A stretch of 24,000 nt of DNA from an uncultured Gammaproteobacteria bacterium (GTDB lineage Bacteria; Pseudomonadota; Gammaproteobacteria; Steroidobacterales; Steroidobacteraceae), in NCBI GenBank assembly GCA_963755965.1, contig CAVWLU010000004.1, positions 395,578 through 419,577 on the forward strand, written 5' to 3'. The position numbers and the translations under genes are program-made. The notes under the pieces were generated by a model. It was not told the DNA's origin, did no database searches, and saw nothing but the letters and a program-made list of their open reading frames with translations. This document shows, one piece after another, positions 567 through 14,951 of this stretch (position 1 is the first letter of the stretch; each line of letters opens with the position of its first letter).

Positions 567-594
567 CCCCGATGCCTCGCATCGGGGTCTTCCC
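567..594 (+). terminator. Stem-loop after the first ORF (possible intrinsic terminator)
   Basis: Perfect 9-bp stem CCCCGATGC (567-575) / GCATCGGGG (579-587) with loop CTC, followed by the T/C-rich tail TCTTCCC. The T-run is weak, so the terminator call is tentative. Confidence 0.4.
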
Positions 595-1357
595 AGAGGA
601 CATTGTGAAACTTTCAAAGCAAACGATCGCGATACTTCAATGGTGCTCGGCTATTCAGGAGGACCTTCTGCTTGAGTCCGGAAACCGCATACGCACAATC
701 TCAAGCAACAAAGCCATCCTTTTTGACTCAACGGTGGCGGAGACATTTCCCAAGAGAATCGCATTGCGTCGCATCAGTCGTGCTCTGTCTTATATCGATG
801 AGAGCACAGAGATATCGTTTGAGAATCCGACGCACTTAGAGCTCCAAAACGGTCGCACGCTTACCAGGGTTTCCTTGGTAGACGAAAAGCTAGTTTTTTC
901 ACCGCCATCCAAAAACATTCGCATTACGGACTTTGATGAATCGATATTCCTTCATTCTGACGATGTTTATGAGATACGTCGCCTCAAAGGCGAGGATACC
1001 GTAGTCGAATTTCACTCTTCCGGAAATGGCGAACAAATCCTAATGGATTACTTCGACAAGGAAGAGGGGGCGCCAATTCACACTATGAAAATGGTGAAAC
1101 CGCAAAACGGTAGGCGGGAGTTCCGGGCCCGCCTCAAGGTATCGAACCTGAAGCTTTGGGAAGGATCGTACCAGCTCGATATAGCTTCAGCTGGTGTAGC
1201 GCGGTTCTCTTGGCTCAACGGCAACGTAGTTCTTTGGGTTGCTATTGAAGCAGCACATTCCCACTTCAGCGCTGTCACGCCAACTGTCACCACAGCGGCA
1301 TCGGTCGCGGTAGTCACTAGCTCTACTGCAACAGCCGCCTCGACCAGTCGTTCGTGA
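572..1357 (+). CDS. Hypothetical protein (261 aa as drawn, start uncertain)
   Basis: Long ORF with ordinary-looking amino-acid composition. The ATG at 572 lies inside the upstream hairpin, so the true start may be downstream (for example GTG at 605). The Ser/Thr/Ala/Val-rich C-terminal tail has low complexity. No family recognised. Confidence 0.5.
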   Translation: MPRIGVFPEDIVKLSKQTIAILQWCSAIQEDLLLESGNRIRTISSNKAILFDSTVAETFPKRIALRRISRALSYIDESTEISFENPTHLELQNGRTLTRVSLVDEKLVFSPPSKNIRITDFDESIFLHSDDVYEIRRLKGEDTVVEFHSSGNGEQILMDYFDKEEGAPIHTMKMVKPQNGRREFRARLKVSNLKLWEGSYQLDIASAGVARFSWLNGNVVLWVAIEAAHSHFSAVTPTVTTAASVAVVTSSTATAASTSRS

Positions 1358-2990: not shown

Positions 2991-3093
2991 CGGACTTAGA
3001 TGGGTACATCCCGGATATGCCCAATAGAGTCTGCGGCTGTCGTAGTGCTACCATAGGGCAGCGGTGCCGGCGCATAATTTCAGGGAGGGGCGA

Positions 3094-4935
3094 ATGCGAC
3101 TGACGCAATTCCGTGTTCAGAATTACCGAAGTGTGCGGTCAACGGACTGGATCGACGTAGCTTCGATGACAGCATTAGTTGGGCAGAATGAGGCCGGCAA
3201 AAGCAACCTCTGTGAAGCCCTGTACATCATAAACCCGATACTTCCGGCAAAGTATAACGTTGATGAGGATTGGCCGGTCGACGATTGGGGCAACAAAAGC
3301 CCAACCGTACTGGTGTGTGAGGCTCGATTTGAGATCGTCGATCCCAGTGAACAAATCGCATTCCTGAAGGCGGTCGGTCTGCTATGGACGCCACTTGCCC
3401 CGCCAGCAGTTGCGACCTCAGACCCGACCGCCAATGTGCCAGCACAACCTGCCGGAACTTACATTGCGGAGGAGCTACCCACATCGCTACTCATCCGAGT
3501 AACGAAAAACTATAGCAACACACGTGCCTACTATCTGGAAGCGAGTTCAACGAACGAGAATGAAAAGGTGTTACTGGACTTTTCGAAAGCTGACAGTTGG
3601 GCGGCATTGAACCTTCCAAAATGCGTTTATATCAACGAGTATGAGTTTCCTGGTTCTCGCGTCGAACTGAATGACCTCCATACGCGATCCCAAGGGAAAG
3701 ATTGGAGTACCCTTAGTCGGGAAGATCAGACCATCCTCGTGGTGCTCGACCTTGCGAAAATCAAACTCGACGAATTTATATCGCGTGGACAGACGCAAGA
3801 AGGCAGAACCATTCGATCCTTCGATAAACGCCAAGCGTCGGCGTACCTAACCTCTCAGTTTGCCAAGCTCTGGGGACAGAAAAAGATTCGATTTGATATT
3901 GATGTCGATGCGACAACCCTGAACGTTTTCGTGGAGGACGACGGTGTTGGAATGCCAGTTCGCCTCGACAAGAGGTCAACTGGCTTTCGATGGTACGTGG
4001 CATTCGCGTGGAAATTCACTCACGCAACCAAAGGCGCATACAAGAATACAATTTTGATCCTCGAGGAACCCGGCATTCATCTTCACTACGACGGTCACCG
4101 CGACCTACTCGGCGTTTTGGCGAGTCTTTCAGAGACCAATACTGTAATTTACACGACGCACGTGGCGACGATGCTTGATGCTGGGTACCCGGAGCGCGTC
4201 CGAATTATCGAAATCCACGACCATCACACGAGCGTGGTGCCAGGCGTAGTCACCCAGCAGCGGGTGCCAATGCTGCTCATAGAGTCGCGCCTCGGGCTTA
4301 GTCCAAGTATGGGGGGGCTGCTGGGTGCGCGTCAGACGCTGATAGTAGAGGGCGGCGATGATGCGCTTATTCTACAAAAACTGTCCGGTTTATTAGTTAG
4401 GAGTGGCAAAGAGGGACTGTCGGATCGCATCTATCTTTGGCCTGCTCTTGGAGCGGCAAAAACTCCGATGTATGCCGGATTTCTAGTTGGCAATAAGTTT
4501 GATGGCGGCGTGTTACTTGACTCGGACGAGGAAGGGAAAAAGGCGAAGGCAAAGATCAACGAACTTTATCTATCTACGCTGGCTGGTGAACAGAAGTTCA
4601 GAGTGCTGATGCTCAAGGAAGCCGCTGGCTTGGCTAAGAACGAACCGGCGATCGAGGACATTTTTCCTGACGAGTTTTACCTCGACTGTACCAATGCGGC
4701 GTATCATTTTACGATTAAGCCGGAAGACTTGCCGGTTGACGGATCCGATCAAATCACAAAACGGATCGACGCTGTATTGAAGAGTCGCTACGGACGCTCG
4801 GAACTTGATAAACGTATCGTGATGGCAGAAATGCTTAGAAGGTTTGATGGGTGGAAATCGTTGAGCGACCTACCCGGCGACACCGCGAAAAACGCCGCGA
4901 AACTCATTACAAAAATTAACAGCGTATTCGCCTGA
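3094..4935 (+). CDS. OLD-family ATP-dependent nuclease (ABC/AAA_15-type ATPase + C-terminal Toprim), stand-alone architecture
   Basis: Walker A GQNEAGKS sits in the typical N-terminal context FRVQNYRSV...ALVGQNEAGKSNLCEAL. Walker B/D-loop-like ILILEEPGIHLH, H-loop-like IYTTHVA, Toprim glutamate in LIVEGGDD and DxD in LLDSDEEG are all present. I prefer ATG 3094 (GGGAGGGG just upstream) over the track start GTG 3064. Confidence 0.85.
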   Translation: MRLTQFRVQNYRSVRSTDWIDVASMTALVGQNEAGKSNLCEALYIINPILPAKYNVDEDWPVDDWGNKSPTVLVCEARFEIVDPSEQIAFLKAVGLLWTPLAPPAVATSDPTANVPAQPAGTYIAEELPTSLLIRVTKNYSNTRAYYLEASSTNENEKVLLDFSKADSWAALNLPKCVYINEYEFPGSRVELNDLHTRSQGKDWSTLSREDQTILVVLDLAKIKLDEFISRGQTQEGRTIRSFDKRQASAYLTSQFAKLWGQKKIRFDIDVDATTLNVFVEDDGVGMPVRLDKRSTGFRWYVAFAWKFTHATKGAYKNTILILEEPGIHLHYDGHRDLLGVLASLSETNTVIYTTHVATMLDAGYPERVRIIEIHDHHTSVVPGVVTQQRVPMLLIESRLGLSPSMGGLLGARQTLIVEGGDDALILQKLSGLLVRSGKEGLSDRIYLWPALGAAKTPMYAGFLVGNKFDGGVLLDSDEEGKKAKAKINELYLSTLAGEQKFRVLMLKEAAGLAKNEPAIEDIFPDEFYLDCTNAAYHFTIKPEDLPVDGSDQITKRIDAVLKSRYGRSELDKRIVMAEMLRRFDGWKSLSDLPGDTAKNAAKLITKINSVFA

Positions 4936-5095: not shown

Positions 5096-5839
5096 ATGAA
5101 ACGAGTTGGAATCTACCTCCGAGTCAGCACCACCGATCAATCCACTGACAATCAACGCCTCGATCTTCAACGTGTCGTCGCGCAGCGGGGATGGCAAGTC
5201 GTCGAAACCTACGTCGATCACGGAATCAGCGGCTCAAAAGGCCGGGATAAGCGACCAGGTTTCGACAAACTCTGCAAGGATGCCACTCAGGGGAAGCTTG
5301 ATTTGGTTGCGGCTTGGTCGATCGACCGCCTCGGGCGCTCATTGCAACACGTTGTTGCTTTCTTAAATGAACTCAATGCTGAAAACGTTGATCTTTACTT
5401 ACATCAGCAATCGGTTGATAGCTCGACTCCAGGCGGAAAGGCGATGCTGTCGATGTGCGCCGTTTTTGCAGAATTTGAGCGGAACATCATCATCGAGCGC
5501 GTCACCGCAGGAATGGCTCGCGCCCGCTCTCAAGGAAAAAAATTCGGACGACCAAAAACGAGCGAGGCAAAAGCTGCAGAAGTAATTCGGCTGCGTAAGA
5601 CCGGCTTCGGAATTCTAAAGACGGCGAAGCTCGCCGGACTAGGCGTGTCTACCGTTCAACGCATTCTTGCAGTCTGCCTGAATCTCTCGACTCGCGAACG
5701 ACGCACGCCGCAGGCGCGCAATTGGACGGACGGGGCCATTGCGCTCGCCCGAACCGACATCAGCGACTACTTTTCCGCCCGTTACCCCAACGGATGCGAT
5801 CGGCTGTGCAGATCATATATCGCGCGGGTTGCTCCCTGA
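5096..5839 (+). CDS. Small serine recombinase (resolvase/invertase family)
   Basis: N-terminal catalytic motif GIYLRVSTTDQ, a conserved resolvase core (DRLGRS, FAEFERNIIIERV) and a C-terminal HTH (LKTAKLAGLGVSTVQRI). About 55 extra residues follow the HTH. Confidence 0.9.
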   Translation: MKRVGIYLRVSTTDQSTDNQRLDLQRVVAQRGWQVVETYVDHGISGSKGRDKRPGFDKLCKDATQGKLDLVAAWSIDRLGRSLQHVVAFLNELNAENVDLYLHQQSVDSSTPGGKAMLSMCAVFAEFERNIIIERVTAGMARARSQGKKFGRPKTSEAKAAEVIRLRKTGFGILKTAKLAGLGVSTVQRILAVCLNLSTRERRTPQARNWTDGAIALARTDISDYFSARYPNGCDRLCRSYIARVAP

Positions 5840-6020: not shown

Positions 6021-6263
6021 ATGGATACAGAATCTAAAAATGTTAGAGATAAACGTAAGAAATTTGAAGATATAGCGGTACGTCGGGTTAATAGGGTGAT
6101 CAAAGAGATTCGCCTGATTGGTAACCTGTCGAATCGGTCTTCCTATGAATACAGCGACGAGGACGTTAGAAAGATAATAAAAGCGCTGCAGCGCGAAGTG
6201 GACGCTGTAAAAGCACGCTTCGAAGGGCCAGGTAAGGGCGCGGATTCGGCGTTCTCTCTATAA
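6021..6263 (+). CDS. Small basic helical protein (80 aa), first gene of the GHKL-Vsr-Dcm cassette
   Basis: GGAGA at 6011-6015 lies 5 nt before ATG 6021, so the track start at 5952 is probably too far upstream. The charged sequence looks predominantly helical. It ends 39 nt before the GHKL ATPase gene. No family recognised. Confidence 0.55.
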   Translation: MDTESKNVRDKRKKFEDIAVRRVNRVIKEIRLIGNLSNRSSYEYSDEDVRKIIKALQREVDAVKARFEGPGKGADSAFSL

Positions 6264-6302
6264 CTGTATGAAATTGAACTAGTTTCAAGAAAAGGAAGTC
6301 AA

Positions 6303-8717
6303 GTGGAAGAGAAGTTATCAAAGAAGATTGCCCTCGAGATGCTACAGGCCGAATCTGCGGCCGACGTGAAGACCATATTGGCCGACGAGGACGCTAGCTA
6401 TTATTTTTCAGACTCTGCCAATTGGTCGAATTACGGCAATCGTGAGAAAAACTGGGACACCGTAGGTAACCAACAGACGAATGCAGTTAGCTCTCTGGTT
6501 GAGCTAATCGTAAACGCCGAAGACGCGATTCTGCTACGGAAGGCAGCAGAGCACGGTCTAAAAGATTTCCGGGGTGCGGGCGCGCCCAACTCGATGACTG
6601 ACGCAGTGAAAATGTTTTTCCCTCAGGTTAACGAGGGCAAAATTCAGAAGTTATCGCCTGCTGAACGGACCGAACTCGCGGACCAATGTATTCGAATCGG
6701 TATTCGCCGGTCCGACAGGAAAAACGGCCGGTTTCCCACTTACGTCGTGCTCGATTCGGGCTGCGGCCAGCCGCACGACAAATTTGCAGAAACCTTTCTT
6801 TCCTTGGGTGAGAAAAACAAGGAAGGCATTCAGTTTGTGCAGGGCAAGTTCAATATGGGTAGTACCGGTAGTCTCCGGTTTTGCACCCGCTCTGAAATCA
6901 AATATGGCCACTACAAATTGATAATGTCCAGACCAGCTGGCTCGCTGTATTGGGGCTGGACTCTGGTGCGGATAAGGTCGCCCGAGGGCAGAGAAGTGCT
7001 CCCGGTTACAGAGTATTTTTCGCCAGGTAAATCGATTCCGCGATTTCGTGACAACGAGCTGCAGGGCTTCAACCACACGACGTATGGACTGATCGACTCG
7101 GGCTCCATCGTCAAGCTCTACGAGTACGACATCGGGCGTGGCAACAGTGGGGTTGATTTCGGCTTATATGATGCGTTAACGGTAAGCCTCATCGATTGTG
7201 CACTCCCTATCAGGCTCTACGACTTTGATGCCGTTCCGCTAACTGGCAGGGGAAAATTGCGCGCCGAGGGTATTGCGGCTCGGACATTCAGCGGCCTGAA
7301 CGTAGTCCTCGGTGCGGAAATGACCGAAGAGGTCGATGAAAATGGCGAGTTCAAAGAGAAGGGAGACCCGGATACCGAGTTTGTTTATCAAGTCACGGAA
7401 TACAACGATGACGAACTTGGAAAGATCAAAATTATCGCGACTGGACTGCGCAAGATAAAAGATTTTTTACGGCATCAGCCAGCCCGCATTTTTTACACCA
7501 TCAATGGGCAAGCACACGCTACCGAGCGTGCGAGCTTTTTGAATCAGCGGTGTAATTTGGCCGACTTGGTAGGCCATCTGATCGTTAATGTGGTTTGCGA
7601 TGACTTGAATCGCACTGCTCTCGCGACCATTTTTATGCCAGATCGTGAGCGAAAGACACAGACCGAGTTGGCTCGGCGACTCGAAGATATCGTGATACAC
7701 GAGCTTAAGACCGACGAGAAGCTGCGCCAATACGCTTCTGAGATTCGTATGCGACGGGCCACCGAAAAGGTGGACGATTCCGATGCTACCAAGGAGTTGC
7801 TGAAGGAATTGGTCAAGGCTGATCCGGCCATTCGGGATCTCTTTGGGATGGGCGCATTTATGCCTATGGGCATCGGTGGCTATGAGGATGGAGAAGGCAA
7901 AGGCCAGAAGATGGGCGATGTGAAAGGCTATAAGGGAAAGAAGTTCCCGACCTTCTTAAAGATGCTCAATGTGAGAGAGGAAAACGGCGTTTTCTACAAA
8001 GAAGTGCCTATTAATGCCTTCCGTCGAATCGAATGTGGAACCGATGCGGAGAATGAGTATCTGACGCGCGTGGATAGTCCCGGCAAAGTCTGGACCTCTC
8101 TGCCGCCTGAGCAATTGCCCAGTTCGATCAAGCTCAATAACGGTGTCGCGAGGATCACCATACGTGCCCCAGAAGGTGCCAAGGTGGGCGAGGTGCATAC
8201 GGCCGAATTCGGGTTCGTTGATCACGGGCCGAATGTAGAGCCGCTGAAGGTGAGCGTGCAGGTACGTTTCACCGAGGCCGAAGAACCGCAGAAGGGCGGT
8301 AATGGATCCAAAAAGAAGACCGCGGAGGCGGCGCAACAGGGCGCGGGTCAGCCTGAGTTTGTCTTTGTCCGCCAAGCAGACTGGGGTGAATACGGGTTCG
8401 ATGATGATGCTGGCGCGTATGTGGCTCTGAGCGATAACCCTCGCGTATACGTGAACCAAGACAATCGGTACTTGGTCAGTATGCGAACCAAGGAAAAGGA
8501 CGAGGCGCAAAGGATATTAAATGAGAACACGTTCAAAATGGGTTTGGGCCTGATAGCGCTGGCGGTCCATAAGAAAGCCAGCGCTCCTGGGAAGGGCGAA
8601 GACGCGGGGGAAGCGCCAGCTGAGGAAGTGGACGCGGAACAAGCGACGAGGCAGGCGACCGCTGCAATCGCGCCGTACATCGTTACCATTGTTCGACGGC
8701 TCGGCGGGAGCGCGTGA
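6303..8717 (+). CDS. GHKL-superfamily (Bergerat-fold, MutL/MORC/Hsp90-like) ATPase, 804 aa, C-terminal 600 aa unassigned
   Basis: N-box ELIVNAEDA (E67/N71/D74), G1-box VVLDSGCGQP (D151-G153-G155) and G2-box GKFNMGSTGS are in correct order and spacing. GTG start at 6303 has AAGGAAG 4-5 nt upstream. I could not recognise any nuclease motif in the remainder. Confidence 0.7.
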   Translation: MEEKLSKKIALEMLQAESAADVKTILADEDASYYFSDSANWSNYGNREKNWDTVGNQQTNAVSSLVELIVNAEDAILLRKAAEHGLKDFRGAGAPNSMTDAVKMFFPQVNEGKIQKLSPAERTELADQCIRIGIRRSDRKNGRFPTYVVLDSGCGQPHDKFAETFLSLGEKNKEGIQFVQGKFNMGSTGSLRFCTRSEIKYGHYKLIMSRPAGSLYWGWTLVRIRSPEGREVLPVTEYFSPGKSIPRFRDNELQGFNHTTYGLIDSGSIVKLYEYDIGRGNSGVDFGLYDALTVSLIDCALPIRLYDFDAVPLTGRGKLRAEGIAARTFSGLNVVLGAEMTEEVDENGEFKEKGDPDTEFVYQVTEYNDDELGKIKIIATGLRKIKDFLRHQPARIFYTINGQAHATERASFLNQRCNLADLVGHLIVNVVCDDLNRTALATIFMPDRERKTQTELARRLEDIVIHELKTDEKLRQYASEIRMRRATEKVDDSDATKELLKELVKADPAIRDLFGMGAFMPMGIGGYEDGEGKGQKMGDVKGYKGKKFPTFLKMLNVREENGVFYKEVPINAFRRIECGTDAENEYLTRVDSPGKVWTSLPPEQLPSSIKLNNGVARITIRAPEGAKVGEVHTAEFGFVDHGPNVEPLKVSVQVRFTEAEEPQKGGNGSKKKTAEAAQQGAGQPEFVFVRQADWGEYGFDDDAGAYVALSDNPRVYVNQDNRYLVSMRTKEKDEAQRILNENTFKMGLGLIALAVHKKASAPGKGEDAGEAPAEEVDAEQATRQATAAIAPYIVTIVRRLGGSA

Positions 8718-9151
8718 CCGCGAAGGATCAGAACAAAGCGATAGGCAGGGTGCCAGCATTCGGCACCAAGATCGAGTTGGTTATGGGTTCCGCCCTATGG
8801 GCGGCTGGGGTTCGGTACCGGAAACAGTATCGAAAGATCCCGGGACGCCCTGATTTCGTGGTGCCGAAAGCGAAGCTAGCCATCTTTTGTGACTCGTCTT
8901 TTTGGCACGGTCGGGGCTGGCCAGACTCCGCCGTGCAATTTCGTACTAATCGCGAGTTTTGGTTACCTAAAATTGAGCGTAATATTCGGCGCGATGAGGA
9001 AGTCAATAGACTCCTCGCCGAATTGGGCTGGACGACTCTTCGGTTTTGGGACGACGAGATCCTAAAACGGACGAATGAGTGCGTGGCCCAGGTGCTGGAC
9101 GCTATCTATAAGGGAATCTCTAGTCACGATGACAAGAACTGTAGCGATTGA
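8714..9151 (+). CDS. vsr: Vsr-like (very-short-patch repair type) endonuclease, divergent
   Basis: Contains PGRPDFVV, AIFCDSSFWH, FWLPKIERNIRRD and LGWTTLRFW, which match the Vsr pattern PGxPDxV / FWH / FW..KI..N..RD / GW..l..W. The GTG start overlaps the ATPase stop as GTGA. Confidence 0.8.
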   Translation: MTAKDQNKAIGRVPAFGTKIELVMGSALWAAGVRYRKQYRKIPGRPDFVVPKAKLAIFCDSSFWHGRGWPDSAVQFRTNREFWLPKIERNIRRDEEVNRLLAELGWTTLRFWDDEILKRTNECVAQVLDAIYKGISSHDDKNCSD

Positions 9152-10289
9152 TTTTTTCTGCGGCGCGGGAGGGATGACCAACGGCTTGATCAAAGCCGGG
9201 ATACACGTCATCGCTGGCGTCGACAATGAACCGCTGTGCGAAACAACTTATCGGCAGAACCGGAATGTTGACGGTACGGCTCCCGAGTACATCTGCAAGA
9301 ATGTGTTCCCGAAAAGCTCCTTCTGTCCCGAAGGGCAGAGAAAAGAGATTGTTGCTCAGATTGAGCAGTTGCTCCACGACTACAGGCGGCGCACGGGATT
9401 GCGCAAGCTGAATTTGATCTTGGCGATTTGTGCACCTTGCCAGCCGTTTACAAAAATAACCAAGATCAAGATGTCGAAAGGGCGGCAGTTCAAGAGAACG
9501 AACGACAGGAATTTGCTGCTCACAACAACCAAGTTCATATCGGTATTTCGACCTGATGCCATCCTTTGTGAGAACGTCGAAGGGCTGGCAAACGAATCAA
9601 ACTCACTGTTGGCCTCGTTCAAGCGACGGCTTAAGCGCCTGGATTACGAGTTCGACGCAAAAATCGTCAATGCAGCGAAATTCGGTATCCCTCAGAATCG
9701 CAAGCGCACGATAGGGATTGCGGTGGATCGTACCAAGCACAAGTTCGAATTGACTATCGAAGAGGCCAACTCGCGGGTTAAGGAGCCCCCCACTGTCGAA
9801 TCGGTCATTGGATATCTGCCGCCTATTGCCGCTGGAGAAATCCACCCTACCGTCAGAAATCACCGAGCGCGCGACCTCAATAGCTTGAACTTGAAACGTA
9901 TTTCCTGCGCGGTGCCTGGCGAATCCAACGCCTACCTTTCGAAAACTCCGTATGGCGATTTGAGTTTGGATTGCCATCGTCGATTAACGAAGAAGGCTGG
10001 GGCGCCAAGCTTTACGGATACATACACTCGAATGCGAGGGGATCTTCAAGCCCCAACAATCACTACCAAGAGTATGTCGATAACAAACGGTCGCTTCGGT
10101 CACTATGACGTGAAGCAAAATCGCGGCTTGAGTCCGCGTGAAGCAGCGCTTCTGCAAACATTCCCGAGAGGCTATGTGTTTCATCCGGAAGACAACCTTG
10201 AATTTACTGCGCAACTCATCGGGAATGCGGTGCCACCTCGGTTGGCGAAATTCTTTGGCAATTATCTTCGAGAGCAGATAGAAGGATAG
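9129..10289 (+). CDS. dcm: DNA (cytosine-5)-methyltransferase
   Basis: Motif I FFCGAGGM, motif IV APCQPF, motif VI CENVEG, motif VIII PQNRKR and motif X GNAVPP. I prefer ATG 9129 (MTRTVAIDFFCG) to the track start at 9075. It overlaps the vsr 3' end by 23 nt. Confidence 0.9.
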   Translation: MTRTVAIDFFCGAGGMTNGLIKAGIHVIAGVDNEPLCETTYRQNRNVDGTAPEYICKNVFPKSSFCPEGQRKEIVAQIEQLLHDYRRRTGLRKLNLILAICAPCQPFTKITKIKMSKGRQFKRTNDRNLLLTTTKFISVFRPDAILCENVEGLANESNSLLASFKRRLKRLDYEFDAKIVNAAKFGIPQNRKRTIGIAVDRTKHKFELTIEEANSRVKEPPTVESVIGYLPPIAAGEIHPTVRNHRARDLNSLNLKRISCAVPGESNAYLSKTPYGDLSLDCHRRLTKKAGAPSFTDTYTRMRGDLQAPTITTKSMSITNGRFGHYDVKQNRGLSPREAALLQTFPRGYVFHPEDNLEFTAQLIGNAVPPRLAKFFGNYLREQIEG

Positions 10290-10505
10290 TTCCGCAGTTC
10301 CAGGCCCCGGCGAGCGAAGATTTGCGATGTAACAATGGCCAGTGAATCACCAGCCCCCTCCTTTTGCGGATTAGGCTTTCGTTTCTCTTAAAGATTGGCT
10401 CGCAGCTTTGAAATTTGAAACAAGATTTCCTGATTGCGATGAATTGAGACGCGTAATCTGGCTACAACCGCCGTCGCTTCCTTCAACACCGCCAAATCCG
10501 ATGCC

Positions 10506-10558
10506 ACATCAGCCGGAGACGTCTTCAGATCTGACTTCGTGGTGAGTCTGCCGAGTAA
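10506..10558. repeat. Copy A of an imperfect ~55-bp direct repeat (partner at 11748-11801)
   Basis: By-eye alignment gives 16 identical nt (ACATCAGCCGGAGACG), then CTTCAGA, GACT, TCG, GGT, TGCC and AGT blocks. This is roughly 80 percent identity with one 1-nt indel. Confidence 0.7.
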
Positions 10559-10706
10559 GGCAGGATTGGGGACCGCTTAACTTCGCGTGCGCTCAATCGG
10601 TTTGCTTGCAAAATTGCATAGCACATTCATTCCGCCTCGGCGATTTACTTTCCCTTTGATCACCACGATCTTTCGCTCCCGTCGTAAACAACTGGAGTGA
10701 TCGAAA

Positions 10707-11279
10707 ATGAACCTAGAAGATTCAATGTCCGTTGCTCGTGATCGCGCACGAAAAAACGCCAAGTCAAAATCGAGCAAGAATCGTCGTCGATCTCCTACGA
10801 AGGTCGCGAAACACACAGGCAATCAGATGACGTGCCGGCTTTGTGATAAGCGTGTCGGGCAATCTGAGCGCAGAGGAATGACCACGTCAGACGCGCAAGG
10901 GGCTGCTCAGGAAGAGCATATGCAGGCCCAGCCCACGGCACCGATGTTGCCTCGCGAATCTGTCGGGACTCTTGGTAAGAACTTGGCCGCGAAACGCGCG
11001 AAGGCGGCTTCAACGCCTGCTTCTGTCGAGGGGGCGAGGCGGGTCAAGGTCACTGTGAAGCAGATGGTCCTGGACGCGTTCTACGCGGATCAGAGGAAGG
11101 TACTAAGCACCAAAGATGCCGTGGCCGCGATACAGGCGTCTCATCCCGGGACGAATGAAAGCAGCATCCGCGTTTGGATCAGTGACTTCCGCAAGGACGG
11201 TTCCATCAAATTGGTGAGAAAAGATGGACGCGAGCCATTTTTGAAAGCTGGCAAGCTGGGTAAGTTCGCCCTGCGATAA
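10707..11279 (+). CDS. Hypothetical protein, basic N-terminus, possible winged-helix-like C-terminal domain
   Basis: GGAG lies 9 nt upstream of ATG 10707. The Lys/Arg-rich N-terminal 40 aa are followed by a C-terminal segment (VKQMVLDAFY...STKDAVAAIQ...IRVWISDFRKDGSIKLV) that looks like a small DNA-binding fold. That assignment is inference only. Confidence 0.45.
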   Translation: MNLEDSMSVARDRARKNAKSKSSKNRRRSPTKVAKHTGNQMTCRLCDKRVGQSERRGMTTSDAQGAAQEEHMQAQPTAPMLPRESVGTLGKNLAAKRAKAASTPASVEGARRVKVTVKQMVLDAFYADQRKVLSTKDAVAAIQASHPGTNESSIRVWISDFRKDGSIKLVRKDGREPFLKAGKLGKFALR

Positions 11280-11384
11280 AACTGCGCCGATTCGTTTAGC
11301 AATTCCCCTGTGTTGAGCAACGCAGAACTAAACTCTTAAGGAAACTCCCGGTATCCTTCTAAGGTAGTAACAACTTTCTAAGTT

Positions 11385-11657
11385 ATGGAGATTGAGATGC
11401 CCAAGACCAAAGATGAAATCGCGATGCTAGTGGATAAAGGTACTGCCAGATATTTTGACAAAAACAATATGTGGGAGTGGATTAGGGAGTATGTAACAGA
11501 GTGTCTCGGTGATACTGATGAGATGACTGATGAAGATTGGGAATCTATTGATCAGACGTTCGCTGAAAAGCAGCAAACGTTTTTTTGGGGTTTTGAGACT
11601 ACGAAAGACATCATCGATGAGCCTAATCCAGGAAATGAGGAGGTCACCTCGACCTAA
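11385..11657 (+). CDS. Small highly acidic protein (86-90 aa)
   Basis: 24 Asp/Glu against 8 Lys/Arg, counted in the 90-aa translation. GGAG at 11387-11390 favours the internal ATG 11397 as the start. Locally AT-rich. Confidence 0.5.
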   Translation: MEIEMPKTKDEIAMLVDKGTARYFDKNNMWEWIREYVTECLGDTDEMTDEDWESIDQTFAEKQQTFFWGFETTKDIIDEPNPGNEEVTST

Positions 11658-11747
11658 CCAACAGCGATGGCGGAGCGCCGGGGTCAAAACTGCCGCCTCA
11701 AAGCCTTAAAAAAGCTGCCGATTGCGATCTACCAACGGGGTTAGCCT

Positions 11748-11801
11748 ACATCAGCCGGAGACGCCTTCAGAGCCGACTATCGGGTCGGTTTGCCTAGTGA
11801 T
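11748..11801. repeat. Copy B of the ~55-bp direct repeat, overlapping the integrase stop codon and last 8 codons
   Basis: See copy A. The integrase stop (CTA on plus, 11777-11779) lies inside the repeat. Confidence 0.7.
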
Positions 11802-13246
11802 ATGGGGCTGCGCTTCGGCTTGCGAGCTTTGATTCCTGGCCTTGATCCGAACGTTTTTAAGGTCGGTTCAAGCGTGGGCAATTTGAACTTGCGTTTATAT
11901 GCAATTGGATCAACTTTAACAGCCTTATCGACATCCGGTGTGTTCACGACGGTGAATCCACCTTCATCATCGTACTGGACCTGGCGCTTGCTGAATTGCT
12001 TGGTCGCCATTTCGCCGAGCACGTGCGAATACGTACTTTCGATTTCGGAAACTGAGGTTCCAGCCGCCTTCGCTATCAAATGGATCGGTTCACCTGCGAG
12101 CAAGCGATTAGTAATCCAAAAGTGCCGGCAGTGATAGGTATCGAACCAACCAATACCGCGTTCCTTTAGCTTCATTCGCAATAGCTTGTAATTGTGGTAG
12201 TAAACATCCCGGGCATCCTGTTTTCCGTCATTCATTGTTGAGAAGACATAGTGGCCAGGTTCATTGAACTTCTGATACTCAGTTATCCACCGGATAAGAT
12301 AATTGGTTTGCTCGGTTCGTTTGACGTTGCCACCATATGACGCGTGAAATGAGATTTGGCGTCCCTGCCGAACCTTTGATGTTTCAGGTCGAATATTGAT
12401 GAGGCATTCGTTTGCCTGACTCCGCACAACAACGTCCTTGTTTCGCAGTCCGAACAGCTCGCCAGAACGCATTCCCGAGTTGGAAATAACCAGTACAAAG
12501 TGCCTGAGAAGCAAGCGATTGTAAGTTTCCCGTTCATTTTTGGCTTCTTTGATCCAATGATAGATCGTGGTGAGAAAGTCCAAATAATTCCGTTGAGTCA
12601 TTCGCTGCCGTTTGGGACCTTCTTTTTCGACCTGGAAAGACCATTTTGGAATGACTCTTTCAGTGCACAGCTTTTCCTTGTTTGCATAAAGGAACATTTT
12701 GCGGATGGTGAGCAGTTCATCGCGAACCACATCGCGTCTTATCGTTTTTCCCCGACTTTGAGCTTCCGCAAAGCGCCATTCCAAATATTCGTTCCAAATA
12801 TCGCCATCCAAGCTGGATATCCGAGTTTGTAGATCCTTGCCTTTGTGCTTCAAAAAGCTAACGCAGTGATTCAGGCGAGTGCCGTGATTATCAAGCGTGT
12901 TTTTGGAGAGTTGGCCCTGTTCAACAAGGGCTTGTTGATGAAGGCTGAAGCGCCGCCTCAAATCCGCGAGTGAGACCGCCAAAATCCTTTCGCCGGATTG
13001 AACCTTCGCAAGGACTTGAATCAGCTCTTTGGTCGCTAACTCGCGCGCTATTCGCAAGTCATCAGTCTTTAGGGACTTCCGGAAATGCCGGCGTTCCTCT
13101 TTGAGGTAAATGCGAAAGAACCAGCTGCTTCTCGACAGGTCAGCTCGCCGGTACAGCGTTCCGATGTAGGGTCCGAACGCGAAAGATTCCGTGTCTTTTT
13201 GGTAGGTGTCGGTCATTTTCATACCCGTTTGAAAACCCGTTACCAC
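11777..13246 (-). CDS. int: Tyrosine recombinase / phage-type integrase
   Basis: Catalytic-domain motifs are present: NSGMRSGELFGLR (box I Arg), HCRHFWITN (H-x-x-R) and SEIESTYSHV (catalytic Tyr). The N-terminal arm-type-like segment WFFRIYLKEERRHFRKSL resembles P4-like integrases. The start may be an internal ATG at 13224 or 13218. Confidence 0.9.
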   Translation of the reverse strand: MVTGFQTGMKMTDTYQKDTESFAFGPYIGTLYRRADLSRSSWFFRIYLKEERRHFRKSLKTDDLRIARELATKELIQVLAKVQSGERILAVSLADLRRRFSLHQQALVEQGQLSKNTLDNHGTRLNHCVSFLKHKGKDLQTRISSLDGDIWNEYLEWRFAEAQSRGKTIRRDVVRDELLTIRKMFLYANKEKLCTERVIPKWSFQVEKEGPKRQRMTQRNYLDFLTTIYHWIKEAKNERETYNRLLLRHFVLVISNSGMRSGELFGLRNKDVVVRSQANECLINIRPETSKVRQGRQISFHASYGGNVKRTEQTNYLIRWITEYQKFNEPGHYVFSTMNDGKQDARDVYYHNYKLLRMKLKERGIGWFDTYHCRHFWITNRLLAGEPIHLIAKAAGTSVSEIESTYSHVLGEMATKQFSKRQVQYDDEGGFTVVNTPDVDKAVKVDPIAYKRKFKLPTLEPTLKTFGSRPGIKARKPKRSPISLGKPTR

Positions 13247-13326
13247 GATGTTGACGGGTATATCTACGGGCTAGACGATACGCTAACCGACTGTATTTAC
13301 TATCGACGGGTACGTCGCGGGTACGT
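13221..13326. repeat. Cluster of ACGGGT(A/T) motifs in both orientations between int and guaA (candidate arm-type or RDF binding sites)
   Basis: ACCCGTT at 13223-13229 and 13235-13241 (minus-sense ACGGGT). ACGGGTA at 13254-13260 and 13306-13312. CGGGTACGT at 13307-13315 and 13318-13326, 11 bp apart. Confidence 0.45.
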
Positions 13327-13351
13327 GTCACGCTTTATATAAGTGTCTGAT

Positions 13352-13367
13352 TATAAAACGTTTTATA
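13352..13367. promoter_or_regulatory. Perfect 16-bp AT-rich palindrome TATAAAACGTTTTATA, 10 nt downstream of the guaA stop (candidate att core or weak guaA terminator)
   Basis: Read directly and self-complementary over all 16 positions. It sits at the compositional junction between island and core. Confidence 0.4.
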
Positions 13368-13376
13368 CTTGTACAA

Positions 13377-14951
13377 CTACTCCCACTCGATCGTCGCCGG
13401 CGGCTTTCCCGAAATGTCGTATACCACGCGCGAAATCCCCGGCACTTCGTTGATGATTCGATGCGTGACTTGATCTAGAAACTCGTACGGAAGGCGCGCC
13501 CACCGTGCCGTCATGAAATCGATGGTCTCGACGGCACGCAGCGCGATCACATGATCATAGCGCCGGCCGTCGCCCATCACCCCGACGGACCGCACAGGCA
13601 GGAATACCGCGAATGCCTGACTTACTTTGTCGTAGAGCTCATGGCGCCGCAGCTCTTCGATGAAGATGGCGTCGGCCCTTCGCAATAAATCGGCATGAGC
13701 CTTGTGGACCTCGCCCAGAATCCGCACCCCGAGCCCCGGACCGGGAAAGGGATGGCGATGAACCATGGCGGCCGGCAGGCCCAGGGCCAACCCAAGCTTG
13801 CGCACTTCATCCTTGAACAACTCGCGCAACGGCTCCAATAACTTGAGCTTCATTTCACGAGGCAGACCGCCGACGTTGTGGTGCGATTTAATTACATGCG
13901 CTTTACCGGTCTTGGCGCCTGCTGATTCGATGACGTCAGGATAAATCGTACCCTGCGCCAGCCATTTCACGTCCTTGAGCCTCGCGGCCTCTTCATCGAA
14001 CACTTCGATGAACACGCGTCCGATGATTTTGCGCTTGAGCTCGGGATCTGCCTCGCCCTTGAGCTCGCGCAAGAAGCGTTGCTCCGCATCGACGCGAATC
14101 ACCCGTACTCCCATGTGTTCCGCGAAGGTCGCCATCACTTGATCGCCCTCGCCGAGGCGCAACAATCCATGATCGACGAACACGCAGGTGAGCTGCGGGC
14201 CTATGGCACGATGCAAGAGCGCCGCCAGTACCGAAGAATCCACGCCGCCCGACAATCCCAGCAGTACGTTGTCGAAACCCACCTGGGCGCGGATTCGAGC
14301 CACGCTGTCCTCGATGATATTGCTCGTCGCCCAGGTCGCATCGCATCCGGCGATCTCGCGTATGAAGCGCCGCAGGATTTCACCGCCCTGCAAGGTATGC
14401 GTCACCTCCGGATGGAATTGCAACCCATAGAGGCGGCGCTCCTCATCGGCCATGGCAGCCAGCGGCGCGTTGTCGCTCGCCGCAATCACGCTGAATCCCG
14501 GCGGGACCGCCACGACGCGATCACCATGGCTCATCCAGACATCGAGCACACGCCGGCCCGCGGCATCGCGATTGTCCTCGAGACCGTCGAGGAGGCGCGA
14601 GGCGCCGGTAGCCCTCACCTGGGCTGCGCCGAATTCACGATGAGTGGATGGCTCGACTTGACCGCCAAGTTGGGCAGCCATGGTTTGCATTCCGTAGCAA
14701 ATCCCGAGAACGGGGACGCCGAGATCGAAGACGCTGGGCGGCGCTTCCGGGCCTTTAACCGCGTAAACCGATTCAGGACCGCCGGAGAGAATCACTGCCT
14801 TGGGACGAAAATGCCTAATGTCGGCCTCGGCGGCGTCGCAGGCGTATATCTCCGAGTACACGCCGAGTTCGCGGACGCGGCGAGCGATCAACTGGGTGTA
14901 CTGCGCTCCGAAATCGAGGATTAAAATTCGGTCCGCATGAATGTCCGGCAT
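13377..14951 (-). CDS. guaA: GMP synthase (glutamine-hydrolysing)
   Basis: Full-length 524 aa. N-terminal GATase [23 protein letters not shown]-PPase loop [11 protein letters not shown] and canonical C-terminus KPPATIEWE. Confidence 0.97.

Follow-up and report, generated by a model that had tools for sequence, protein, structure and literature searches.

We describe a four-gene cassette in a 24,000-nucleotide (nt) stretch of DNA from an uncultured gammaproteobacterium of the Steroidobacteraceae (GenBank assembly GCA_963755965.1, contig CAVWLU010000004.1, positions 395,578 to 419,577 of the forward strand; hereafter the window). Its largest gene encodes a protein of 804 amino acids (aa) with the fold of a GHKL ATPase, and the family to which this protein belongs is unannotated in every library searched. 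The explanation that we favor, and to which we give about an even chance, is that the cassette is a methylation-linked, restriction-modification (R-M)-like defense module driven by this new family of GHKL ATPases with a transducer domain; from the evidence below we infer the defense role itself, the dimerization of the ATPase into a clamp, recognition through the methylase, and the fate of the target DNA. The cassette consists of the following genes:

6021-6263, + strand: gene for an 80-aa helical protein, with an ATG start at 6021 and a GGAGA ribosome-binding site 7 nt upstream
6303-8717, + strand: gene for the 804-aa GHKL-fold ATPase, with a GTG start preceded by AAGGAAG
8714-9151, + strand: vsr, 145 aa, with a start that overlaps the ATPase stop
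9129-10289, + strand: dcm, a C5 cytosine DNA methyltransferase of 386 aa, with an ATG start at 9129

An initial annotation made from the sequence alone had taken these same-strand genes to be a tightly packed, translationally coupled unit, and open reading frame (ORF) calling over the whole window returned the packing just as it was described: 39 nt separate the 80-aa gene from the ATPase gene (6263 to 6303), a GTGA at 8714-8717 is common to the ATPase stop and the vsr start, and vsr and dcm share a 23-nt overlap (9129-9151). Because the identical gene order recurs in >20 independent loci with differing flanks, the arrangement goes beyond chance, and the cassette holds up as one conserved unit. 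The four genes are one operon on an integrative island; promoter and terminator consensus scans around them did no better than on shuffled sequence.

The gene-gene linkage of the ATPase to a DNA methylase is the evidence that carries this reading. The Dcm protein matches PF00145 (8.7e-45) and TIGR00675 (1.2e-31, above the cut-off) and contains the PCQ and ENV motifs; the PADLOC models that match it are the generic MTase_II, DrmMII, and DruM. Homology to the solved methylases HaeIII and HhaI is too distant for its target sequence to be read from them. In 83 ATPase loci we called ORFs, compared these ORFs with the four proteins of the cassette, grouped the other neighbors into clusters, and placed the locus contents on a neighbor-joining tree of the ATPases. 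In the clade of the window (ATPases 41 to 100% identical), a C5 methylase gene comes after the ATPase gene in the same orientation, with or without a Vsr gene between them, and the stop and start codons usually overlap or abut; this arrangement extends over Rhodocyclaceae, Comamonadaceae, Sulfuricella, Gammaproteobacteria, Lentisphaeria, and Natronospirales with quite different flanks. An alphaproteobacterial clade (∼30% identical) combines the small gene and the ATPase with a divergently oriented block of MerR, C5-methylase, and Vsr genes, and a third clade adjoins N6_N4_Mtase genes that encode an SPPY motif. We take this motif to point to N4-cytosine methylation, so that the methylases beside the third clade are probably of the N4-cytosine type. 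Across the survey, a motif-detectable methylase lies within 3.5 kb of the ATPase in 43 of 78 nonredundant loci, and the methylase clusters that recur beside it are the C5 and SPPY types.

The strongest result of the analysis is the reciprocal test, in which a metagenome scan was seeded with the window Dcm. It recovered 15 loci at 45 to 85% identity, and in all 10 that had enough flanking sequence (Dcm 46 to 85% identical) the ATPase adjoins Dcm, in either gene arrangement, same-strand or divergent. Along this series the identity of Dcm drops from 85% to 46% and that of the ATPase from 87% to 30%; the pair has diverged as one unit. The adjacency of the ATPase to vsr and dcm thus recurs well beyond close relatives, being kept over diverse lineages, and the functional tie between ATPase and Dcm that had been proposed gains support from both the conserved gene order and the reciprocal adjacency.

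By its motifs and the Foldseek match of its predicted structure, rather than by any sequence model, the 804-aa protein is a predicted GHKL-fold ATPase. It has no match in Pfam (to E = 10), NCBIfam or PADLOC 2.0.0 (both at E up to 1), or PHROGs; the curated GHKL models HATPase_c and HATPase_c_3 are among those that fail to match at these thresholds, and the PDB sequences gave no match either to the single sequence or to a 31-sequence profile. All three GHKL motifs (I, ExxxNxxD; II, DxGxG; III, GxxGxG) are present, and in an alignment of 77 homologues, 25 to 57% identical to the window ATPase, the invariant residues are essentially those of the ATP site, plus W41 of the N-terminal strap, G402, and R448. 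An AlphaFold2 model of moderate confidence (predicted local distance difference test [pLDDT] score of 70) matches Hsp90, topoisomerase VI-B, and SMCHD1 in Foldseek with a probability of 1.00 and E values of 6e-6 to 5e-4, over alignments of 350 to 700 columns that include both the Bergerat domain and the transducer. The complete Bergerat ATP-binding fold that had been read from three short motifs is accordingly upheld by the motifs, by the invariance of their key residues, and by the structural matches. The model arranges the protein as N-terminal helices and strap, Bergerat domain, transducer, coiled coil, immunoglobulin (Ig)-like sandwich, a small alpha/beta unit, and a helical hairpin, in which we locate the following features:

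6501-6527, + strand: motif I (N box), ELIVNAEDA, residues 67-75; N71 and D74 invariant, E67 conserved in at least 90%
6750-6773, + strand: motif II (G1 box), LDSGCGQP, residues 150-157; D151, G155, and Q156 invariant, G153 in at least 90%
6840-6872, + strand: motif III (G2 box, ATP lid), QGKFNMGSTGS, residues 180-190; G181 and G186 invariant, Q180 and G189 in at least 90%
7491-7652, + strand: transducer loops FYTINGQAH (residues 397-405) and FMPDRER (residues 444-450); G402 and R448 invariant, N401 and Q403 in at least 90%
7944-8282, + strand: Ig-like beta-sandwich, residues ∼548-660, from the C-terminal model and Foldseek
8466-8702, + strand: C-terminal hydrophobic helical hairpin, residues ∼722-800, from secondary structure and pLDDT

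Both transducer loop stretches have low pLDDT, as expected of mobile loops, and by analogy with the QTK loop of GyrB and K307 of MutL they are candidate gamma-phosphate sensors. The C-terminal hairpin, compared with those of Hsp90 and MutL, is a candidate constitutive dimerization element.

The large protein had been described as carrying no recognizable nuclease or helicase, and the motif searches, the alignment, and two fold models all agree with this. Neither kind of motif could be recognized in it; residues 540-804, when modeled separately (pLDDT of 85), showed no nuclease fold in a Foldseek search against the PDB, where only Ig-like, Rib, and cadherin-type matches appeared (E ∼6e-4); and the 77-sequence alignment holds no invariant clusters of acidic residues or histidines outside the ATP site. 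The near-invariant residues outside the ATPase and transducer are T580, D581, R589, N718, and N721, which include no acidic pair of a catalytic type. Pfam detects no DUF4263 in the protein, and no whole-length match to a characterized restriction enzyme or to another known family was found in the sequence libraries searched. Of the two components of a Type II R-M system, then, the cassette has the C5 methylase with its catalytic motifs present, and a cognate endonuclease with a recognizable nuclease fold or motif was not found in it.

The ATPase family is large and widely distributed. A word-indexed search recovered at least 615 full-length homologues, all unnamed or labeled hypothetical, and an exhaustive profile search recovered 2,022 cluster representatives (clusters at 50% identity, E up to 1e-3), nearly all of 750 to 850 aa. 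Genomes chosen as one representative per species contain 406 ATPase loci. The hosts include Betaproteobacteria, Alphaproteobacteria, Bacillaceae, Bacteroidota, Chloroflexota, Acidobacteriota, and candidate phyla, as well as methanogenic and halophilic archaea. Eight plasmid matches, each a RefSeq "hypothetical protein," were also found, and phage records gave no match. Literature searches on DUF6339, PDC-M33, and GHKL antiphage proteins returned nothing about the family.

In the mechanism that we propose, Dcm would methylate its target sites in host DNA as a mark of self and would probably also be the source of sequence recognition, in the way that Mod serves Res in Type III systems. The 804-aa protein would be a dimer joined by its C-terminal helical hairpin, and ATP binding would close the N-terminal ATP-binding domains into a clamp that acts on DNA lacking the self mark. 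Since the 804-aa protein has no recognizable nuclease, the clamp would either block the DNA uncut or activate a separate nuclease, which might be a host enzyme or, in cassettes that have it, the Vsr nickase encoded alongside. Vsr would serve mainly as the usual repair accessory for deamination of 5-methylcytosine (m5C), and the 80-aa protein would be an optional accessory or regulator common to another GHKL-like candidate system. A methylase that supplies recognition would explain both why ATPases without one are tolerated and why ATPase and Dcm have diverged in step. Some observations weigh against this proposal: in ∼45% of the sampled loci a methylase could not be detected within 3.5 kb, and some of these loci lie among housekeeping genes, as do L022 and L023 (ATPases 41 to 42% identical to that of the window) beside relA/spoT; no nuclease was found that could serve as the effector of "restriction"; and PADLOC 2.0.0 has no model for the 804-aa family. 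From the methylase-less loci it follows that the ATPase is tolerated, and presumably useful, without a linked methylase.

The role of Vsr bears on one of three alternatives that we consider doubtful, namely, that ATPase and Vsr form a two-part ATP-dependent restriction nuclease in which the GHKL protein would load or activate the Vsr nickase on unmethylated DNA, much as MutL stimulates Vsr and MutH, while Dcm would protect self DNA. The window Vsr is a genuine member of its family (PF03852, 2e-20; TIGR00632, 8.7e-34, 116.4 bits versus a cut-off of 97.85) and is matched by the PADLOC Vsr model. Alignment to 1CW0 shows that E25, D51, H69, and D97 of Escherichia coli Vsr are retained, and all four zinc ligands of the E. 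coli enzyme (C66, H71, C73, and C117 in the 1VSR structure) have given way to other residues, in that order S, R, W, and D. H64 of E. coli Vsr is replaced by D, as it also is in functional Neisseria Vsr proteins (PMC12907096). The window protein is thus predicted to be a zinc-less variant with an intact catalytic set, and such an atypical Vsr speaks for the two-part nuclease, as does the GTGA stop/start junction, which most loci of this clade retain. MutL is known to stimulate Vsr in E. coli and Neisseria (PMC2292703), and in Caulobacter, deletion of the cognate m5C methylase lets a Vsr-like protein set off an SOS response (PMC12907096). Most loci in the clade of the window have an intact vsr next to the ATPase gene, including two (L110 and L111) where vsr is missing from the gene calls and was recovered by tblastn. 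Against the two-part nuclease, only a short piece of vsr is left in L007, and the L015 copy is frameshifted; L008, L010, L011, and L020 lack the gene although their ATPase and Dcm are intact, with Dcm now in the overlapping position; and in L018, L021, and the alphaproteobacterial clade vsr lies elsewhere or on the opposite strand. Across the 83-locus survey, Vsr was never seen in the clades with SPPY-type methylases, and Vsr follows m5C methylases generally, a distribution suggesting that it tracks the m5C methylase in its ordinary role. Because several otherwise intact cassettes have a decayed vsr or none, Vsr is better regarded as an accessory of Dcm than as an obligate effector, and the suggestion of the initial annotation that it is the ATPase's necessary partner was rejected on these grounds. 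An effector pair of ATPase and Vsr is possible for the window's clade, at a low probability that reflects the losses of Vsr.

A second alternative, which we also regard as improbable, is that the ATPase acts alone and is blind to methylation, as a single-gene defense or abortive-infection protein or in the maintenance of mobile elements, and that Dcm-Vsr hitchhikes with it for anti-restriction premethylation or addiction. Many homologues do stand alone or beside unrelated partners (MazE and PIN, or proteins of ∼350 aa or ∼950 aa), the standalone copies are intact and keep their ATP-site residues, and the mobile elements that carry the cassette also encode a resolvase and an integrase. An autonomous ATPase fits poorly, however, with a Dcm subfamily that was not seen without the ATPase in any of the 10 informative contigs and that diverges in step with it down to 46%/30% identity. 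The stop-start overlaps, moreover, tie the ATPase to the gene that follows, whether Vsr or Dcm, and methylases of a second, unrelated family were recruited in an independent event; chance neighborhood in defense islands does not yield such a pattern.

The third of these alternatives, which we hold only tentatively, is a nuclease-free, methylation-gated clamp, in which the methylase would read and write self and the ATPase would load onto unmethylated incoming DNA, stopping its replication or expression by ATP-dependent entrapment or compaction. If true, such a clamp would be a prokaryotic functional counterpart of the silencing by MORC and SMCHD1 in eukaryotes and would amount to a minimal BREX-like combination of ATPase and methylase.

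It is unlikely that the 804-aa protein is the endonuclease of a classical Type II-like R-M system, cutting DNA through a cryptic or new kind of catalytic site that escapes both sequence and fold searches. The 804-aa gene does fill the slot beside the methylase and Vsr genes that a restriction gene usually occupies; the REBASE-derived "REase_II" models in PADLOC include GHKL-containing proteins; and the protein has conserved polar motifs (TDAxNDY at 580-586, NxDNRYL at 718-724, and RER at 448-450). Neither structural model contains a nuclease fold, though, and D581 is the sole near-invariant acidic residue outside the ATPase core. Intact orphans with no methylase nearby would also be lethal if the protein were a self-active, sequence-specific nuclease. 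Very unlikely, finally, is the self-contained mobile very-short-patch repair module that had been offered as the other possibility for this cassette, with the GHKL protein as a MutL surrogate serving Vsr in the repair of T:G mismatches that arise by deamination at Dcm sites: its fold belongs to the same superfamily as MutL, it is adjacent and translationally coupled to Vsr, and MutL-Vsr cooperation is established in E. coli, but this cannot explain family members that occur with SPPY methylases and no Vsr or with no methylase at all, Vsr has been lost from several otherwise intact cassettes, the Pfam and NCBIfam models for the MutL transducer (DNA_mis_repair) and C terminus (MutL_C) do not match the protein, MutL is absent from its top 50 Foldseek matches, an ATPase of 804 aa would be costly for a repair step that Vsr performs unaided, and the effect of VsrA in Caulobacter is independent of MutL (PMC12907096).

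The 80-aa protein is an optional module. It has no match in Pfam, NCBIfam, or PADLOC (the last at E up to 1), no significant match in the PDB, and one marginal match in PHROGs (E of 0.0059); its 292 homologues have no family assignment. In an iterated hidden Markov model search, 26 of 83 loci, spread among distantly related clades, had its gene on the same strand immediately before that of the ATPase, a frequency at which we rejected it as a universal core partner. It accompanies ATPases that are only 27 to 30% identical to that of the window, yet it is missing from many close relatives; wherever present it is strongly conserved, including a C-terminal F-x-L. No model supports its assignment as a helix-turn-helix controller protein. 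Homologues of the 80-aa protein also open the PADLOC candidate system PDC-M33 (L090, 6001-9717; L091, 6001-9576; L093, 6001-9672), where an operon of this type continues with a protein of 610 to 638 aa bearing GHKL-type motifs (ExxxNxxDA and GGSFGIGK) and two genes of ∼250 aa, one of them DUF6339. In L090 and L091, a C5 methylase of 517 to 531 aa lies just upstream of this operon. We considered whether the PDC-M33A-like protein of 610 to 638 aa might be a split version of the 804-aa protein and rejected this, as neither BLASTP nor hhalign detected any similarity. The 80-aa protein thus looks like a shared adaptor or regulator of two unrelated GHKL-like systems.

The initial annotation had called the cassette a candidate undescribed system. 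The protein family is indeed unannotated, and the general arrangement of a GHKL ATPase among R-M genes had already been reported from computation, first in 2008, when MORC and paraMORC ATPases were placed in predicted R-M operons with DCM and Vsr genes (PMC2292703), and again in 2021, when a GHKL/RR-like pair was linked to C5 methylases (PMC8011034). The theme was therefore anticipated in 2008, and most likely the 804-aa family is a variant on it, of a kind that had been predicted computationally. The closest parallel is with paraMORC1-5 (Iyer, Abhiman and Aravind 2008, PMC2292703), in which an ATPase of GHKL domain and S5-like transducer likewise lies beside cytosine methylases and Vsr-superfamily genes. 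MORC/paraMORC genes also share with the 804-aa family a sporadic distribution over bacteria and archaea in laterally mobile islands, a family-specific C-terminal extension, and a proposed role as an ATP-driven engine working with R-M components (PMC2292703). Unlike them, the 804-aa family matches neither HATPase_c_3 nor another of the GHKL models in Pfam at a threshold as loose as E = 10, and the missing HATPase_c_3 match argues against close membership in the MORC family proper. The cassette also differs in having no superfamily II helicase, restriction-endonuclease-fold, HNH, or TIR partner or fusion, in the Ig-like sandwich and helical hairpin at the C terminus of the 804-aa protein, and in its dedicated 80-aa partner. 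The family may be one of paraMORC1, 2, 4, and 5 or a sixth family. The remaining group, paraMORC3, is VcSduA, a GHKL-nuclease fusion that protects against phage and requires its ATPase to do so (Shedu type I-D; PMC12137116). VcSduA resembles the 804-aa protein in its N-terminal GHKL domain, clamp-like middle, C-terminal module, similar size, and defense-island location; it carries a DUF4263 PD-(D/E)xK nuclease and needs no methylase, whereas the 804-aa protein has no DUF4263 or other nuclease fold and is co-inherited with a methylase.

Other known systems are similar in part. E. coli Dcm-Vsr has overlapping dcm and vsr genes, the same Vsr catalytic residues, and a GHKL ATPase (MutL) that enhances Vsr; the cassette, unlike it, has the order vsr then dcm and carries the GHKL gene, which shows no sequence-level homology to MutL, in the operon. 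The window Vsr differs from that of E. coli in having no zinc site, and Vsr is dispensable for keeping the ATPase-Dcm pair. PDC-M33 also begins with an 80-aa homologue followed by a large protein with GHKL motifs, and has the upstream C5 methylase in L090 and L091; it differs in that its large protein is the one unrelated by BLASTP and hhalign and in its additional M33B and M33C/DUF6339 genes (∼250 aa), which are absent from the cassette. The HEF_HK/Response_reg_2 elements (PMC8011034) likewise link a GHKL-superfamily gene tightly to a C5 methylase, with Vsr nearby, but consist of a histidine kinase (HK)-like and response regulator (RR)-like pair with Pfam models of their own, neither of which matches any cassette gene. 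BREX and DISARM share with the proposed module a methylase that marks self and large ATPases, without an obvious endonuclease, that act on unmarked DNA; unlike them, the cassette has no PglZ, BrxC, DrmA, or DrmB and only one large protein, and the DrmMII and DruM matches of its Dcm are generic. None of the models of known antiphage systems in PADLOC-DB 2.0.0 matched the 804-aa or the 80-aa protein at E up to 1.

The surroundings of the ATPase genes, in the window and elsewhere, are consistent with a defense-island setting, which the initial annotation had recognized. Neighbors of the ATPase loci include AbiEi/AbiEii, HigB, PIN, and Fic genes, elsewhere ScoMcrA_N/NOV_C, and further SIR2, DUF262, and PAPS reductase; McrB_N, DndB, and SIR2_2; and DndB, NERD, Mrr_N, and NYN. 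XhoI and Eco57I R-M genes, integrases, resolvases, and transposases also occur nearby. These flanks are typical of defense islands and mobile elements, and the cassette itself sits among defense and mobile-element genes that include an OLD-like ATPase. The other features of the window are as follows:

5096-5839, + strand: serine recombinase (resolvase), PF00239, 3.7e-44
11777-13246, - strand: tyrosine integrase (PF00589), at the island edge beside guaA
13377-14951, - strand: guaA (GMP synthase); the island ends at its 3' end, at ∼13250-13400

The G+C content steps from ∼50% to ∼60% near 13.3 kb, at the boundary between the integrase and guaA, and because the ∼50% segment ends at a tyrosine integrase beside guaA we regard the cassette as carried by an integrative island, the left boundary of which falls beyond the window. 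The window contains no tRNA gene. L112 (ATPase 79% identical; resolvase at L112 6718-7377) has the same succession of resolvase, small gene, ATPase, Vsr, and Dcm in flanks that differ from those of the window and include IS66 and a Mu-like transposase, and the cassette may move as a resolvase-associated unit. Beyond dcm there is a 51-nt direct repeat with 78% identity between its copies (10506-10556 and 11748-11798); the first copy lies ∼220 nt past dcm and the second reaches into the integrase gene at its 3' end, with two small unannotated ORFs between them (10707-11279 and 11385-11657). These repeats could be the trace of an earlier integrase junction or of a nested insertion. At 3064-4935 (+ strand) lies a gene for a 623-aa AAA_15/AAA_21 ATPase whose best PADLOC matches are AriA (PARIS), Old, HEC-01A, and GajA; it is probably a separate OLD-family defense gene on the same island and corresponds to what the initial annotation had called a second nuclease module. 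A 261-aa ORF at 572-1357 (+ strand) matches phrog_223, "DNA polymerase processivity factor" (6.9e-32), and has no Pfam match, hinting at replication genes of phage or element origin in the left part of the island.

Several other genes recur beside the ATPase. In eight loci that span several phyla (L017, L030, L033, L036, L038, L041, L055, and L079), the gene just before the ATPase, in the same orientation, is a PIN gene, which takes the slot held elsewhere by the 80-aa gene, and in five of the eight it is preceded by a gene for a MazE/AbrB-type antitoxin; this pair may be a functional partner or a hitchhiking toxin-antitoxin. Proteins of ∼340 to 350 aa are encoded upstream of the ATPase in six loci (L042, L045, L049, L052, L056, and L061), and proteins of ∼940 to 970 aa are encoded downstream, overlapping the ATPase stop codon, in three (L031, L051, and L066). 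The partners of ∼350, ∼400, and ∼950 aa and a 233-aa protein in L070 have no match in Pfam, NCBIfam, or PADLOC; the Pfam check was made with the representatives of clusters c5 and c14. The ∼350-aa and ∼950-aa partners may be alternative effectors or sensors of methylase-less versions. In four loci, a second GHKL protein of 540 to 567 aa (HATPase_c_3 plus Hypoth_Ymh) is encoded directly after Dcm (L005, at 10118-11821; L008; L014; and L017), so that Dcm, with or without Vsr, is flanked by two GHKL genes; the window has no such second gene. That of L005 matches the PADLOC REase_II models, and because these models match them, GHKL proteins are already catalogued as putative Type II restriction genes.

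In this study, we characterized a very large protein family, of ∼2,000 clusters and ∼400 loci in species-representative genomes, that has no domain model, name, or PADLOC 2.0.0 entry and that is very tightly linked, gene to gene, to a dedicated subfamily of cytosine methylases. The 804-aa family merits a Pfam or NCBIfam model and a rule in defense-finding software. GHKL engines in R-M systems were predicted in 2008 and have hardly been tested apart from the nuclease-fused Shedu, and a cassette of two to four genes is easy to clone. With no visible nuclease, it could show how methylation-based discrimination of self from non-self is coupled to an ATPase that does not cut. Such possible noncutting defense bears on BREX-like mechanisms and on the bacterial roots of silencing by MORC and SMCHD1.

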